DNA of 64,000 nt from a bacterium (GTDB lineage: Bacteria > Patescibacteriota > Microgenomatia > Woykebacterales > RBG-16-39-9b), in NCBI GenBank assembly GCA_030704665.1, contig JAUYID010000009.1, forward strand, positions 163-64,162, read 5' to 3'. Both the position numbers and the translations under genes were made by a program. The notes below the pieces were generated by a model. That model ran no database searches and had not been told where the DNA came from. It was given only the letters and a program-made list of their open reading frames with translations. This document shows positions 34,155 to 41,268 of the stretch, in pieces (the first letter of the stretch is position 1; each line of letters begins with the position of its first letter).

Positions 34155-35075
34155 CTCTAAAAACGAGAAAGCCACCCTAGGTCAAGTCAACCTGTGAAAG
34201 GTCTTCCTGATCTGGGTGGCCCTCTCTCCAATCAGATGTAATTCGGTTTTGTCGACATTACAGGCCGGTCTTTCCCAAGTTAGGTCTGATCAGCCTTGTC
34301 GGCGCCGGGACGGTCGCTTAGAGCTTCTTCAGGGTGAGGTCACTTCGCATGAAGTTGTCCTTTCCATGCGCTACTCGCTCTACCTGAGCGGATCCGGCAG
34401 TGGAGAAACACTCCACTTACTAGTCACTCTCGTTTCCAAGCCAACGTCTCGAAGTTAAAGCGTCCTTTGATCGGTTACGATGAGCCGGCGGCCCTCGACA
34501 CCGTAGCGGACGCAGACTCACCCGGTGTTCTCGCCCTTCGCGAGGCGCGACGACGACGCGCAGATTTCGTCAAACAACGTCACCAGAGCGAGGGCCGGGC
34601 CGTTCTTGTTGTGGAACATCTTCACTTCCTTTCTGTTCCACTCGTGTCGGCACACCGTGTGTCGATCACACCTTTCTTCCCAGAAAAGTGCCGCGATTAT
34701 AGCGCAGTCGATCTAGGTCTTGGTTAGACCTCCATGACGTTTGTCATGGGCCGACACCTGTTTCGCTCGTCAGTACACTACGTAGGAGCGGACCAGGATA
34801 AATGAAGCCCAGGTTTTAGTCGACATGCCTCGGCTCTACGAAAGGGTTGGTAGTGGGGTTCGTCACGTGTCCGGTTTGAGCATATGCTCAGAGTCCTTTC
34901 TACTGGAGACGTTGCCACGACCCTACTACGCTGCCTAATGGTGCTGTTCTTTATCGTCGTATGACGCCGACTTGAGGTGAACATCCTCACAATTTTCCCA
35001 GAAGCCATAGCACATGGTCTTATACGGGTAAGAGTCGGTTGAACACAGCACGCTCGAACAGCGGAGTATTCTCTC
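34155..35075 (-). ncRNA. Candidate ~0.9 kb GC-rich non-coding RNA (no credible ORF in six frames)
   Basis: Perfect consensus promoter immediately upstream on the minus strand. Many perfect hairpins/palindromes (TGAGCATATGCTCA, CATGACgtttGTCATG, GGTCTtggttAGACC). Terminal stem GCCACCC...GGGTGGC followed by a T-run at the far end. Confidence 0.4.
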
Positions 35076-36776: not shown

Positions 36777-39272
36777 TTGAGCTTGAACAAAGCTCACGCT
36801 ATAATAAGCCGAATGGAAAAGGTTTACGAACACCAAGAAGTGGAAAAGCGTTGGTACGACTTCTGGGAAAAGAAAGGTTACTTTCAACCCAGAGAAAGCA
36901 AAAAACACTTTTCAATAATCTTGCCCCCACCCAATGCCAACGGCAGACTGCACATTGGGCATGCCATGTATGTCATTGAAGATATTATGGTTCGTTACCA
37001 CCGTCTGCTCGGCGACTCAACTCTTTGGCTGCCCGGAGCTGATCACGCCGGGATTCTGACTCAAGTGGTTTACGAGCGCGAACTAGAAAAGAGCGGTAAA
37101 ACGCGCCAGGATTTGGGTCGAGAGGAATTCTTCAAACAAACTTACGCTTTTTCTCAGGAAAACAAAAAGCAGATGTATGAACAACTGCGGGCCATGGGTT
37201 TCTCTCTGGACTGGTCACGTGAAAAATTCACCTTGGATCCTGAAATAACCAAAGTTGTCTACCAAACTTTCAAAGCTCTCTACGATGACGGCCTGATTTA
37301 CCGCGGGACGCGGATGATCAACTGGTGTCCGCGCTGTGCCACGGTTCTTTCGGATCTCGAAGTGGTTCACCAAGAAAAAGAAAGTAACCTTTGGTTTATC
37401 CGCTATCCAATTAAGAATTCCAAAGAATTTGTCACTGTTGCTACCACTCGACCCGAAACGATGCTCGGCGACACTGCGGTGGCGGTACATCCGCAGGACA
37501 AGCGCTATAAAGATTTAGTCGGGAAAACGGCCATTTTACCACTCATGAACCGAGAAATCCTGATCATCGCTGATTCCTATGTCAACTCAGAGTTTGGGAC
37601 CGGTGCTGTCAAGATCACCCCAGCGCACGACCCCAATGACTACGAAATTGGCCAAAAACACAACTTAAGTCAGATCCAAGTCGTTGGCTTGGATGACAAA
37701 ATGACTGATTTATCGGGTAGTTATACTGGTCTTGATAAATATGCAGCCCGCAAACAAGTCGTTGCTGATTTGGAAAAACTCAGTTTAATTGAAAAAACCG
37801 ATCGCCTAAAAAACAACGTCGGGGTTTGTGAGCGCTGTGCTACCGTGGTGGAACCACAAGTTTCGCTGCAATGGTTTGTCGCCGTCAACAAAACCGGTAA
37901 AAGCGGGAAGAATCTGGCCAAGGACGCTCTAGCAGCTGTTAAATCTAAAAAAATTAAGATCATTCCAGCTCGTTTTGAAAAAATTTATTACAACTGGATG
38001 GAAAACATTCATGATTGGTGTATTAGCCGGCAACTGTGGTGGGGCCACCAAATTCCGGTTTGGTATTGTGGTGAGCCGAATCAAAAAAGAATGGGCTTTG
38101 CCGAAAGCATTGTTTCTCAGGTTTTAGAAAGTAAAACCAAAACTTACCGTCTACGTGATCACAGTTTTCAAGTCGGTGACAAGGTAGTTTTCGAAAATAG
38201 TGGTACGAAGAGAGTCTTTGGTCACGGAAGGATTAACGAAGTAACAAGAACAACAGTCGGTGAGCTGCCTTTAGCCGACAAAGCTCATGGCGCCGTTTAC
38301 CAGAACGTCGACGAGCTTATCGCCGCTTTCAAAAAACACAACCCAGACAAAGAAGTAACTTCCGAAACAGCCGCCTTTATTTATGGTTATGAATTCATCC
38401 CAGCAGAAAAACTGGCCAAAATTTGTGGTGAATTAATTGTTTCGTCTGAAAAACCAAAGCAATGTCCTGTTTGTGGCAACGAAAAGTTGACCCAGGATCC
38501 TGATACCCTGGACACCTGGTTTTCCTCAGGCCAGTGGCCGTTTACGACTCTTGGCTATGGACAAAAAGATGACTCTGACTTTAAAAATTTCTATCCAACC
38601 AGTGTCATGGAGACTGGCTATGACATTTTGTTCTTCTGGGTGGCGCGGATGATCATGCTTGGTTTGTACGTGACTGAAGATGTTCCTTTTCAGACAGTTT
38701 ACCTACACGGCCTGGTTCGGGATGAAAGGGGCCAAAAGATGAGTAAAAGCAAGAATAACGCCATTGATCCGCTGACCGTAGCTGAACAGTACGGTGCTGA
38801 CGCAGTGAGAATGGCCTTAGTTTTTGGAACTGGTCCTGGAAACGATGCCAACCTGGGTGAAGCTAAAATCAAAGGCATGCGCAACTTTACCAACAAACTC
38901 TGGAATATTGCCCGCTATATCATTGATATGGCCCCGGAAAAGACTGCTGAGCGTGTTGAAGAAACTGAAGATGACAAATGGATTCTAGCCGAGCTAGACA
39001 AAACTAAAACTAGTGTTACCAAGGCTCTTGATGACTATAGGTTTTCTCAGGCGGCGGAAGAGCTCTACGACTTCGTTTGGCGCCGACTGGCCGATAGGTA
39101 TATTGAAAGTACTAAGTCTCGTCGTAGTGAAGCACAGGCGGTCCTAGAGAAGGTTCTTGAGGACTCACTTCGCCTCCTCCACCCCTTCATGCCTTTCATA
39201 ACTGAGGAGATATGGCAACGCTTGCCCAACAAAAAAGGCACCTCGATAATGGTGTCCGAATGGCCAGTCTAA
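36777..39272 (+). CDS. valS: Valyl-tRNA synthetase (with a lineage-specific zinc-ribbon insertion)
   Basis: PPPNANGRLHIGHAMY (HIGH), KMSKSKNN (KMSKS), DTWFSSGQWPF. About 140-aa insertion between WYCGEP and DTLDTWF containing CPVCGNEKL. Confidence 0.9.
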   Translation: MSLNKAHAIISRMEKVYEHQEVEKRWYDFWEKKGYFQPRESKKHFSIILPPPNANGRLHIGHAMYVIEDIMVRYHRLLGDSTLWLPGADHAGILTQVVYERELEKSGKTRQDLGREEFFKQTYAFSQENKKQMYEQLRAMGFSLDWSREKFTLDPEITKVVYQTFKALYDDGLIYRGTRMINWCPRCATVLSDLEVVHQEKESNLWFIRYPIKNSKEFVTVATTRPETMLGDTAVAVHPQDKRYKDLVGKTAILPLMNREILIIADSYVNSEFGTGAVKITPAHDPNDYEIGQKHNLSQIQVVGLDDKMTDLSGSYTGLDKYAARKQVVADLEKLSLIEKTDRLKNNVGVCERCATVVEPQVSLQWFVAVNKTGKSGKNLAKDALAAVKSKKIKIIPARFEKIYYNWMENIHDWCISRQLWWGHQIPVWYCGEPNQKRMGFAESIVSQVLESKTKTYRLRDHSFQVGDKVVFENSGTKRVFGHGRINEVTRTTVGELPLADKAHGAVYQNVDELIAAFKKHNPDKEVTSETAAFIYGYEFIPAEKLAKICGELIVSSEKPKQCPVCGNEKLTQDPDTLDTWFSSGQWPFTTLGYGQKDDSDFKNFYPTSVMETGYDILFFWVARMIMLGLYVTEDVPFQTVYLHGLVRDERGQKMSKSKNNAIDPLTVAEQYGADAVRMALVFGTGPGNDANLGEAKIKGMRNFTNKLWNIARYIIDMAPEKTAERVEETEDDKWILAELDKTKTSVTKALDDYRFSQAAEELYDFVWRRLADRYIESTKSRRSEAQAVLEKVLEDSLRLLHPFMPFITEEIWQRLPNKKGTSIMVSEWPV

Positions 39273-39430
39273 TGTCATTCTCAGTTTGACTGAGAATCTA
39301 GATTCTCGATTTCTCGAGAATGACCCCTACTTTAGGCATGAAAAAACGGCCGGCCTGCGAAATGCACATCGTGCCTCGCAGTTGTGGATTTAACCACAGC
39401 CGACCGTCTTCGCTCTTCTCCAATTTCCGA

Positions 39431-39931
39431 TCAGGACACCGACGCTGGTTCACCAGTCTCGATAGCGCCAGGTTCTACCAGACCGTCTCCCTCGAGGCGA
39501 TGAACCACCAAGCCAAAGACGATAACCCGATCCAGCTCCATAGCAGCCAGACGCGCCGCCTCCGCGACTCTAATAGTCGGCTCGAGACCTAAACCCAGAA
39601 GTAACCTATCCGCAACTTCAACGAGCAGATCGACACTCCCAGTCCCAGACCAGGGGTAACCCTTGAAGATCGCCACTGCTTCCTTGAGCTCACTACGAAC
39701 AATGGCAGGGTGGTTCTGGAAGAACATCATCCGGAAGGTCAGCTCAACCAGAAACTGGTTGATCACTGTGGCCCTGCGCAGCATCAGACTCAGCTTGTCG
39801 AACTGCTGCTCGTCGAGCTGGCCAGCGAGATGGGCGTTGATCAGGGTTGGCCCCACCCACTCTGGAAGGAGCTTACCGCTGATCACTCGGTAAACCAGGT
39901 CTTGCATCTGCCGAAAGTTGTCTGTAATCAC
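39431..39931 (-). CDS. Island gene 4: 166-aa all-alpha protein, unknown function (GTG start)
   Basis: GTG start preceded by AAGGAG 8 nt upstream. GC-rich codon usage. No recognisable motif. Confidence 0.5.
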   Translation of the reverse strand: MITDNFRQMQDLVYRVISGKLLPEWVGPTLINAHLAGQLDEQQFDKLSLMLRRATVINQFLVELTFRMMFFQNHPAIVRSELKEAVAIFKGYPWSGTGSVDLLVEVADRLLLGLGLEPTIRVAEAARLAAMELDRVIVFGLVVHRLEGDGLVEPGAIETGEPASVS

Positions 39932-39996
39932 AGTACGTTCTCCTTCTAGCTTTCCTCAAGTCTCCAGCTTCCACCAGGCTTGTCGTCTGAGTGCGA

Positions 39997-40389
39997 CTAA
40001 TAGTCGAGTGGGTTGCACTCGTAGCAGTCGCGCTCGTCGCCAGTGTGGATTTTCCCCGCAGCGATGTGAAATGCGTCTCGGTCATCGTCCTCGACCGGAT
40101 ACATCTCATCGAACACATCGTCGTCGCTGACGCCGTGCTCGATCGACTGAAGCTCAGCGATAATCGCTCTCCTGACGGACGGTGGTGTATCGGAGGCCGT
40201 CAGCCTGGCAGTGTTGTAGTCCCCTTCTTCAGGAACCCTACCACCAGTAATCTGATCCAGCCGCTCCCAGTAAGTTGCCAAAACGTTTCCCCTCTCACTC
40301 TCATGCGAGACTCTGGCTTTCCGCCAGGCTACTCGGTGTAGGTGACGATTGCAGTCAGGAAGATTGCTCGCCCGCCGCTTTGGAGCCAC
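39997..40389 (-). CDS. Island gene 3: acidic small protein (95-130 aa depending on start; a TTG at 40281 avoids overlap), unknown function
   Basis: C-terminal acidic stretch DDDVFDEMYPVEDDDRD and CYECNPLDY. Start is ambiguous: GTG at 40389 overlaps gene 2 by 61 nt, while TTG at 40281 follows the conserved intergenic motif. Confidence 0.4.
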   Translation of the reverse strand: MAPKRRASNLPDCNRHLHRVAWRKARVSHESERGNVLATYWERLDQITGGRVPEEGDYNTARLTASDTPPSVRRAIIAELQSIEHGVSDDDVFDEMYPVEDDDRDAFHIAAGKIHTGDERDCYECNPLDY

Positions 40390-40547
40390 TGAACAGAGGC
40401 CCCCGGATGCTCAGCAACGAAGTTGTTCACTTCGTCCTGCAGCGTCTTCAAACGCTCTTCGTACTGACCCGCGTAACCATAGGTCGGACGACTAAACACT
40501 TGGAACATTTCCACCTTTCCCTTCTGGCTGTCGGTCTGAGTGACCAT
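40329..40547 (-). CDS. Island gene 2: 72-aa soluble protein with a DUF4177-like pattern (weak resemblance)
   Basis: ATG with GGAGGA 4 nt upstream. Pattern: beta-strand (VEMFQVF), GY.G, helix, GG, terminal strand (AIFLTAIVTY). Confidence 0.5.
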   Translation of the reverse strand: MVTQTDSQKGKVEMFQVFSRPTYGYAGQYEERLKTLQDEVNNFVAEHPGASVQWLQSGGRAIFLTAIVTYTE

Positions 40548-40581
40548 TCTTTCCTCCGCGTGTCTCTGGCTTCACGCCAGG

Positions 40582-40812
40582 CTAATCGGCAAAGATTCGG
40601 TCCGCTCGCACCAGGAATAGCACAAGGGCTGCGAAGCCCAGTGCATAGGTACCAGCGGCGAGCGTGACGATCCGATCCTTGTTGCCTATCGTGTCTGAAG
40701 GCCAGCCCAGAAGGCCAAAGACGGCGTTCACCACAAGGGCCAGTCCGGCTACGACGACTATGAGCATGACTGTAGACACGTACTTCTGCAAGAAGTTGCT
40801 GGTGATTACCAT
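40582..40812 (-). CDS. Island gene 1: 76-aa two-TM membrane protein
   Basis: ATG start. Two hydrophobic helices (VMLIVVVAGLALVVNAVFGLL and LAAGTYALGFAALVLFLV). First gene after the consensus promoter. Confidence 0.5.
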   Translation of the reverse strand: MVITSNFLQKYVSTVMLIVVVAGLALVVNAVFGLLGWPSDTIGNKDRIVTLAAGTYALGFAALVLFLVRADRIFAD

Positions 40813-41239
40813 TGCCTGGCCTCTCGTCCTCTGACCTTGCGATCAAGCTACTGCTTGCCGTTGCCGCGTCGCCTTCGGTCCTGAGTTACAAGTCGCTCGA
40901 GGCGTGCTTGCACCTTGGGCGTGGCGTTCCTGCGTATCTGCGCATCCGAACGCGCCGCCGGTTTCTTGGACCGAGAAAACACAAGTCTCATAGGTTTGCC
41001 GAAATCCTTTTGATTTCAAAGAGCTGGGTGGATACAAGAGCGCAAAGCTTGTGCTCCTGCTTAAGCAAACCAACCTTGCGGCTGACTTTCTTAAGAAAAT
41101 CAAAAAAGGCACCTGGTAACTGGTATCGATCTGTCCAAGACTTCAGGGCGGTTTTCGCAATGACAGTTCTACTTAAACATTCAATTCCAGTTACTAGATG
41201 CCTTATCTAAGTAACTACTATTCAGTTTTTAATAAAAGG

Positions 41240-41268
41240 ATTATAACAAAGTGTAAAAGAAAAGTCAA
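41240..41268 (-). promoter_or_regulatory. Near-perfect sigma70 promoter TTGACT-N17-TATAAT reading leftward into the four-gene GC-rich island
   Basis: Minus strand reads TTGACT-tttcttttacactttgt-TATAAT. The -35 overlaps the rplY terminator hairpin GTAACTAC...GTAGTTgAC. Confidence 0.6.

Follow-up and report, generated by a model that had tools for sequence, protein, structure and literature searches.

What is the short sequence that recurs in three successive gaps between the genes of a compact island on the minus strand of contig JAUYID010000009.1? Within the stretch of this contig that was analyzed (64 kb; hereafter, the window), the original prediction described an element of ~20 nt immediately after the stop codons of genes 1, 2, and 3 of the island and proposed several roles for it, including a processing signal, a regulator-binding site, and a recoded unit. 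The repeat is real: it is intergenic, lies on the minus strand, and occupies three successive gaps, with the cores CCTGGCGTGAAGCCAGAGAC (40581..40562), CCTGGCGGAAAGCCAGAGTC (40328..40309), and CCTGGTGGAAGCTGGAGAC (39978..39960; the start coordinate of the repeat was originally given one base short of the position that this copy reaches), all read on that strand. The answer that we favor, tentatively and with less than even confidence, is that the repeat is a duplicated intercistronic linker, with a hairpin that would act in the mRNA as a 3′-end barrier, or insulator, between cistrons.

Alignment of the three copies with a covariance model (R3) extends the repeated module to ~33 nt (Table 1), with scores of 47.1, 44.5, and 39.3 bits for copies 1, 2, and 3, respectively. 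Copies 1 and 2 are similar over 32 nt (84% identity), a span that covers the final two codons of the preceding gene as well as its TAG; the stem is identical in all 10 positions, and the loop differs in 2 of 5. Parts of the gaps beyond the module are shared as well: linkers 1 and 3 have in common the string GAGGAAAG, proximal to the ribosome-binding site, and AACGT precedes the start codons of both gene 3 and gene 4. A search of both strands of the window (128 kb) with the 20-mer of copy 1, allowing up to 4 edits, retrieved exactly the three copies. With copy 2 as the query and up to 3 mismatches, only copies 1 and 2 were matched, and none of 100 shuffles yielded a match; the string AGCCTGGYG occurs three times in the window, each time at a motif copy. 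These mismatch and edit scans, together with the shuffles, rule out a chance origin of the repeat for all three copies, and no further copies were detected outside the island in the window, either at ≤4 edits or with the covariance model.

The position of the motif relative to the adjacent genes is not the same in the three gaps. The description "immediately after the stop codon" holds for genes 1 and 2, where the motif follows the TAG at 0 nt, but not for gene 3, the TAG of which lies 18 nt away from copy 3. In copy 3, AAG replaces the TAG of the other copies; this AAG is in frame with gene 3, which suggests that gene 3 once ended at copy 3. The distances to the next ribosome-binding site, originally put at 10-30 nt, are 6, 12, and 14 nt: GGAGG of gene 2 follows copy 1, a second small hairpin and then the ribosome-binding site of gene 3 are found downstream of copy 2, and AAGGAG of gene 4 follows copy 3. 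From the end of the stem to the next start codon, there are 18, 31, and 32 nt in copies 1, 2, and 3, respectively.

As originally proposed, copies 1 and 2 form a 5-bp stem, CTGGC/GCCAG, around a 5-nt loop, with a folding energy of -9.0 kcal/mol each. None of the regions 3′ of the 57 other long open reading frames (ORFs) in the window is as stable, the best one being the valS terminator (-8.1 kcal/mol). In the context of the operon transcript, the pair probability is 0.99 for copy 1 and ~0.6 for copy 2. The loops (GUGAA, GGAAA, and GGAA in copies 1, 2, and 3) are, by sequence, of the stable GNRA or GNRNA types; the GGA that had been noticed in one of the first two loops belongs to copy 2 and is present also in the loop of copy 3. 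Outer pairing extends the stems by 3-4 bp and differs between the copies. No copy is followed by a U-tract (the stems are followed by AGAC, AGUC, and AGAC), so that the motif is not a full intrinsic terminator, and a terminator scan yielded zero terminators within the island.

The core CTGGC-N5-GCCAG is also a palindrome in the DNA, and copy 3 bears on the level at which the pairing matters. This copy carries three substitutions in the stem and a one-base deletion in the loop; each of the three leaves a G·U pair in the sense RNA, where the opposite strand has a C·A mismatch. Thus, the DNA palindrome is lost in copy 3, and in the sense RNA, all 15 of the 15 stem positions across the three copies can pair. 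This pattern is suggestive, and a hairpin in the sense-strand RNA is the best reading of the motif.

Table 1. Features discussed in the text. Positions are those of the window unless a related locus is named; aa, amino acids.
Feature	Position	Strand	Description
Motif copy 1	40556..40588	minus	CGAUUAG-C-CUGGC-GUGAA-GCCAG-AGACACGCGG; contains the stop of gene 1 and the codons just before it
Motif copy 2	40303..40335	minus	CGAGUAG-C-CUGGC-GGAAA-GCCAG-AGUCUCGCAU; includes the stop of gene 2
Motif copy 3	39954..39985	minus	CGACAAG-C-CUGGU-GGAA-GCUGG-AGACUUGAGG; degenerate
Gene 1	40582..40812	minus	76 aa, hydrophobic (GRAVY hydropathy score 1.16); TAG stop
Gene 2	40329..40547	minus	72 aa; TAG stop
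Gene 3	39997..40281	minus	94 aa, acidic; TTG start, TAG stop
Gene 4	39431..39931	minus	166 aa; TGA stop; no motif copy 3′ of the gene
ORF0	40848..40991	minus	47 aa, Arg/Lys-rich, pI 12; TAG stop; upstream of gene 1
Look-alike hairpin	40831..40846	minus	UUGAUC-GCAA-GGUCAG; one base after the TAG of ORF0; -5.2 kcal/mol
Long hairpin	41101..41209	minus	~105 nt, perfect arms, U-run at the end; separates the promoter from the island genes
Promoter, sigma-70 type	41240..41268	minus	TTGACT-17-TATAAT, 11/12 matches, with TG; directly 3′ of the L25 stop
L25 gene	41285..42031	minus	upstream neighbor of the island
valS	36777..39272	plus	left neighbor of the island
GC-rich stretch	roughly 39300-41000		between valS and the L25 gene; 55-58% G+C vs ~45% in the flanks
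Leader RNA, examples	L055:3788-3915; L073:3800-3933; L061:3033-3166; L088:951-1082; L065:3747-3879		upstream of long-form gene 3 homologs

Given that the genes between the copies are not paralogs, it is the linker itself that was copied or maintained. The occurrence of three paralogous copies on one strand, in consecutive gaps, and the confinement of the differences between copies 1 and 2 to the loop within the hairpin are consistent with such a linker. The island would then be a small operon of unrelated orphan genes, horizontally acquired or phage-like, with the motif as the core of a linker that begins with the last codons, UAG, and a C; the G+C-rich stem of 5 bp, capped by a GNRA-like loop, comes next, and AG(A/U)C and a short spacer then lead to the Shine-Dalgarno sequence. 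From the established geometry of the ribosome, a terminating ribosome would be expected to cover and melt the hairpin, which would refold after the release, at the point where the translated cistron ends. The refolded hairpin would be a local structural barrier and could shield the upstream cistron from 3′-to-5′ decay, given that, in the paradigm of REP elements and intercistronic hairpins, a G+C stem with a GNRA-type loop can stall 3′-to-5′ exonucleases. It could also separate folding domains, keeping the neighboring coding regions off the ribosome-binding site 6-14 nt downstream. We infer that the hairpin forms in vivo and, by analogy, that it may affect stability or translation. Should the stability or translation of each cistron indeed be set by the hairpins, these would represent a compact natural operon insulator in a lineage whose RNA metabolism is almost unstudied.

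Several observations weigh against this linker reading. The hairpin of copy 3 is weak (-3.2 kcal/mol, with a pair probability of 0.01-0.6 depending on the flank length), is absent from the minimum-free-energy fold of its gap, and is located away from the stop codon. Three of three transitions leading to G·U have p ~0.125, the four-row covariation count was equaled by 135 of 500 shuffles, and with only three copies, the covariation is not statistically meaningful. Furthermore, a 5-bp hairpin would be only a modest barrier to exonucleases. Finally, genes 1, 2, and 4 have no homologs for comparison among 5.8 billion proteins, and the motif was not found in any locus of the gene 3 family by approximate matching or in 47 related loci with the covariance model; in particular, it is absent from the locus of the closest homolog of gene 3, L040, and from L035-L038. 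The original prediction named absence from homologous operons as an observation that would refute it, and as far as this is testable, in the 47 gene 3 loci, the motif is indeed absent. On present evidence, then, the motif is a three-copy local feature, the weight of which, taken by itself, is modest.

The main rival explanation of the repeat requires no present function: the motif might be the scar of a joint at which recombination stacked unrelated small genes, with repeats that are recent and not yet diverged, in a manner similar to the shuffling of phage accessory regions at short, conserved sequences between genes. Such a joint would be flanked by unrelated orphan genes, as is the case here, and a joint that provided the ends of the genes would account for the presence of the last two codons and the stop in the repeat. 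Copy 3, which is decaying and has its AAG still in frame with gene 3, fits this scheme as well. So do two observations on the gene 3 family: the ends of the gene 3 homologs in L035 and L036 have in common the flanks GAC-TAG-C ... GAGAC and lack the hairpin, and local repeats of their own abound in other loci of the family (L059, L063, L073, and L081). Against a functionless joint are the differences between copies 1 and 2, which spare the stem and fall in the loop, the stem changes in copy 3, which all preserve pairing in the sense RNA, and the hairpins, which are unusually stable for this genome; we consider it rather unlikely.

More doubtful still is a site for a trans-acting factor, that is, a boxB-like RNA bound by an Arg-rich peptide (the product of ORF0), a target of a Csr-type regulator, or a stoperator-like DNA site that blocks elongation in one orientation. 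The lambda-type boxB consists of a 5-bp stem capped by a GNRNA pentaloop, and copies 1 and 2 have this architecture (CUGGC-GUGAA-GCCAG and CUGGC-GGAAA-GCCAG), with a GGAA tetraloop in copy 3. The highly basic peptide of ORF0 includes SDAQIRR...RRRRG, the first part of which resembles MDAQTRRRERR of the lambda N protein, and boxA-like strings, GCTCTT(T), are present in the leader near 41000-41040, just upstream of ORF0. Taken together, ORF0, the hairpin, and these strings are reminiscent of an N/nut arrangement, a likeness without statistical support. However, the status of ORF0 as a gene is uncertain: it was not called in an independent assembly, has a poor ribosome-binding site and a GC1/2/3 of 0.62/0.52/0.65, and has no match in Pfam, PHROGs, or PDB. 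In a lambda-type nut site, a boxA (CGCUCUUA-like) lies a few nucleotides 5′ of boxB, and an N-family ARM protein takes part; here, no boxA-like string adjoins any copy, the GCTCTT(T) strings being found only in the leader. The Csr-type version of the original prediction lacks support as well. CsrA/RsmA sites present GGA in the loop of a short hairpin, usually at two or more sites, one of which overlaps the Shine-Dalgarno sequence; here, GGA is found in the loops of copies 2 and 3, the loop of copy 1 being GUGAA, and every copy is separated from the Shine-Dalgarno sequence, by 6-14 nt. For the DNA version, all copies are in one orientation relative to transcription, as stoperators are (PMC9283540), and the core is palindromic in the DNA. 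Against it, no copy lies at the promoter, and copy 3 breaks the palindrome and changes its spacing. In addition, no DNA-binding, RNA-binding, or helix-turn-helix (HTH) domain was recognizable among the island proteins in family searches. An extended form of the factor-site explanation would be an RNA control circuit of the island's own, in which the ORF0 peptide binds the boxB-like hairpin after each cistron and lets RNA polymerase or ribosomes pass the leader hairpin with its U-run and proceed through the operon. This would be N/nut-like antitermination or a translational switch with one site per gene, in a small-genome, probably CPR-type, bacterium or its phage; we deem it very improbable.

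The compositionally foreign island, the short palindromes placed directly after stop codons, and the GTAG immediately 5′ of the palindrome in copy 2 could also point to a REP- or MITE-like mobile palindrome that was carried in from, or had spread within, a donor genome and was inserted at gene ends. This is quite unlikely, being at odds with the distribution of the motif. Elsewhere in the window (62 kb), the motif has no copies. An exact-pattern scan of one GTDB genome for each of 185,579 species produced nine single matches, which is the chance level, with no genome containing more than one, and the same scan of IMG/VR yielded 24 matches, all single and all chance matches within in-frame PG.KPE coding sequence. 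The motif thus falls outside any dispersed repeat family in the searched collections. Furthermore, the 5-bp stem is far shorter than that of REP elements, and gene calls reveal no transposase within 6 kb.

A recoding signal, with a hairpin directly 3′ of UAG causing read-through or PYLIS/SECIS-like insertion at the amber codon, is the least credible option: TAG ends genes 1-3 and ORF0, compared with 10 of 45 host ORFs, and the hairpin begins 1 nt after the stop in two cases, but continuation past the stops of genes 1 and 2 would be out of frame with the next gene, which it overlaps, and would meet further stops, copy 3 is not beside a stop, and the recurrence of TAG is explained by its being part of the copied module. 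Processing or cleavage, another role in the original prediction, also lacks support, the 5-bp stem being too short for RNase III (for sites of the T7-early-operon type, ~20 bp or more of double-stranded RNA) and no nuclease or toxin being recognizable among the island proteins in family searches. Other candidates were rejected outright. The motif is not a coding repeat on the opposite strand: in the plus-strand ORF 40275..40667, the frames of the two strong copies differ, and no peptide is repeated, given that neither spacing of the copies (253 and 350 nt) is divisible by 3. A sigma-54 promoter reading of TGGC-N-GC has the wrong spacing (judged by eye), and an assembly chimera was rejected, the arrangement being the same in the Logan assembly of SRR13727534 (possibly the same sample).

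The island that carries the motif is compositionally foreign relative to its flanks (Table 1) and is embedded among genes that include yidC, jag, RNase H, an epimerase, L25, valS, and tsaD. The Logan assembly, an independent one, has identical calls for the four genes, which all have good ribosome-binding sites and a clear G+C periodicity of coding sequence (GC1/2/3 of ~0.62/0.38/0.66). The product of gene 1 is probably a membrane protein, and that of gene 4 has an all-helical predicted model of low confidence (AlphaFold pLDDT 58.6). Genes 1, 2, and 4 are orphans that retrieved only themselves in the protein search; there are no paralogs among the mutually unrelated island proteins, and there were zero matches to them in Pfam, PHROGs, PADLOC, NCBIfam, or the PDB sequences. 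Searches of the island against Rfam, both at gathering scores and at E<=5, gave no match. The GC-rich island is bracketed by a direct repeat of 27 nt (81% identity, exact core of 13 nt, AAAAAAGGCACCT), at 39230-39256 (plus strand) and 41101-41127; the first copy falls within the last codons of valS, at the 3′ end of this gene, and the second forms the 3′ arm of the long hairpin. Integration into the 3′ end of valS could have left such a repeat as an att-like duplication; gene calls show no integrase among the neighbors of the island.

The sigma-70-type promoter upstream of the island is the probable start of the island transcript. The block CCATAGTAGTTGACTTT, also upstream of the island, precedes gene 3 homologs in L036, L037, and L040 as well. 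The long hairpin between the promoter and the island genes folds at -48.4 kcal/mol (z = -6.3) and is found also in L036 (within ~40-215, together with the promoter), where the arms are kept and the middle section is different (z = -4.6); it has no Rfam match. Its arm CCAGTTACCAGGTGCC produced 7 matches in IMG/VR, all of them chance matches in coding sequence. This hairpin could be a small RNA gene, an attenuator ahead of the island genes, or a MITE-like element. Downstream of ORF0, a look-alike hairpin occurs in a context resembling that of the motif (UAG-C-UUGAUC-GCAA-GGUCAG-AGGAC), with a 6-bp stem and one GC-to-AU compensatory change. As a fourth copy of the motif, it was rejected: it is missed at E<=10 by model R3, which was built from copies 1-3, and its predicted pair probability in context is only ~0.01.

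Gene 3 is the island gene for which relatives could be traced, and these support the choice of TTG at 40281 over GTG at 40389 as its start, as originally proposed. The short-form homologs begin with M-[AEV]-T-Y exactly at the position of this TTG, which settles the question; the independent gene call is of 94 amino acids, too, and the 36-codon extension to the GTG is without the G+C periodicity of coding sequence. Gene 3 belongs to a family of small acidic proteins that is widespread and is marked by the conserved block ITGGxAPEEGDFNT/SA, most members having an N-terminal CxxC...CxxC ribbon (Zn-ribbon). The family was detected in 51 related metagenome loci and in one IMG/VR contig with phage structural genes, and tblastn against INPHARED (50,697 phage records) gave no match. 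Its members are GC-rich single genes within AT-rich contigs. The closest homolog of gene 3 (69% identity), in L040 (Ga0209323_10002355), belongs to a two-gene mini-operon. A reverse-transcriptase ORF of 344 amino acids is located ~1.5 kb from it (L040:346-2034), with an RT-16 RNA match upstream of the ORF that is below threshold (34.5 bits vs the gathering score of 50).

The mini-operons with short-form gene 3 (L035-L038 and L040) and the window at 39330-39430 have framing sequences in common, with variable gene content in between. These comprise a promoter block, CCTATAGTnnTTGACTTT; a leader in which an inverted repeat, TTGCCA/TGGCAA, covaries (TTGCTGCC/GGCAGCAA in L038); and a 3′ tail, ...CTGGTTAATCTCAAG...AGGTTT..TTAGG. 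The terminator GCTAGC-GAAA-GGCTAG-T6 is present in L035, L036, L037, and L040 but not in L038 or the window. This organization suggests a mobile or hypervariable, cassette-like locus.

Most of the long-form gene 3 homologs are directly preceded by a conserved structured leader of ~130 nt (examples in Table 1). A covariance model of this leader matched 23 loci at 37-122 bits. In the leader, a P1 hairpin, the loop of which is GUUCGGGCUAUCAGG, is followed by a second helix around UUUGCCCC-[GNRA hairpin]-AAGCGG and then by a hairpin that sequesters AGGAG; there are three covarying helices and the invariant blocks GGGYWAUCAGG, CCUUYGCCC, and AAGCGG. RNAalifold predicts 21 pairs, 14 with compensatory changes, and in a covariation test on the alignment, 15 of the 21 pairs covary, a level that none of 500 shuffles reached; the stem positions pair in 93% of the cases compared with 32-44% in slid controls. 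There is no match to an Rfam 15 family even at E<=1. The leader has the appearance of a riboswitch-type element, apparently undescribed, in which the expression platform would sequester the Shine-Dalgarno sequence. It is absent from the window, where the best match of its model, R1, scores 11 bits and lies outside the island.

A further structured candidate in the window is the region 34160-35060, ~900 nt with 52-60% G+C, between a gene encoding an NYN-domain protein and tsaD. It contains no convincing ORF, no gene was called there in the independent assembly, and there is no Rfam match at gathering scores or E<=5. Both strands fold much better than shuffles (z = -5.7 and -6.4; 20 shuffles), and the region may represent a decayed island or a large structured RNA that is as yet unclassified. 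This region and the leader RNA look more interesting than the motif itself.

The motif was also compared with known systems. It is not an integron cassette site: attC is defined here as an imperfect inverted repeat of 57-141 nt with R″/L″/L′/R′ boxes, a GTTRRRY core, and intI nearby, and the module is only 20-33 nt long, with neither GTTRRRY nor RYYYAAC and, as mentioned above, no integrase among the neighboring genes. The enterobacterial REP elements and intercistronic hairpins, such as the stabilizing one that Newbury et al. reportedly described between malE and malF in 1987, are similar to the motif in being G+C-rich stem-loops 3′ of a cistron in a polycistronic mRNA, with no U-tract; they have been proposed to block 3′-to-5′ exonucleases and so to set the relative levels of cistrons. 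REP elements are ~35 nt long, with stems of 12-14 bp, and occur in hundreds of copies genome-wide; they are recognized by a GTAG-type tetranucleotide immediately 5′ of an imperfect palindrome of ~20-35 nt and by an associated RAYT transposase. The stem of the motif is of 5 bp, and its copies are confined to the island, the dispersed copies typical of REP and REPIN being lacking in the window; of the three copies, copy 2 alone has GTAG, in place of which copies 1 and 3 have TTAG and CAAG, respectively. Lambda boxB is matched in the 5-bp stem, in the GNRNA pentaloop (GUGAA or GGAAA), and in a small Arg-rich ORF just upstream. The nut site differs in being present once per operon, in contrast to one motif per intergenic gap, and ORF0, itself doubtful, has no detectable homology to N.

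Among phage systems, the stoperators of Cluster A mycobacteriophages are asymmetric 13-mers of DNA that are bound by a monomeric repressor and are found also at the early promoter (PMC9283540). Like them, the copies of the motif are short, repeated, located in small intergenic spaces, and oriented according to the direction of transcription. The motif differs in having a palindromic, hairpin-forming core, which in copy 3 pairs only as RNA, in the location of all copies away from the promoter region, and in the lack of a recognizable repressor, with no HTH protein recognizable in the island.

The closest described system in organization is the ESAS/SAS of Cluster K mycobacteriophages, repeated intergenic inverted repeats near the starts of small non-structural genes, which number dozens of sites per genome and are conserved across phages; their function is unknown and presumed to be post-transcriptional (PMC3203893). 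The arms of ESAS are 17 bp long, with a spacer of 4-13 bp, and lie upstream of SAS, GGGATAGGAGCCC, which is located 3-7 bp before the start codon and occurs with or without these arms (PMC3203893). No SAS is present at the motif, where the hairpins end 18, 31, and 32 nt upstream of the next start; the motif sequence is unrelated, and there are three copies in one island, two of which abut the previous stop. Given that sequence, arm length, and spacing all differ, the relationship is one of analogy rather than membership; the analogy lies in short intergenic inverted repeats, all in one orientation, upstream of the ribosome-binding sites of unrelated small genes.

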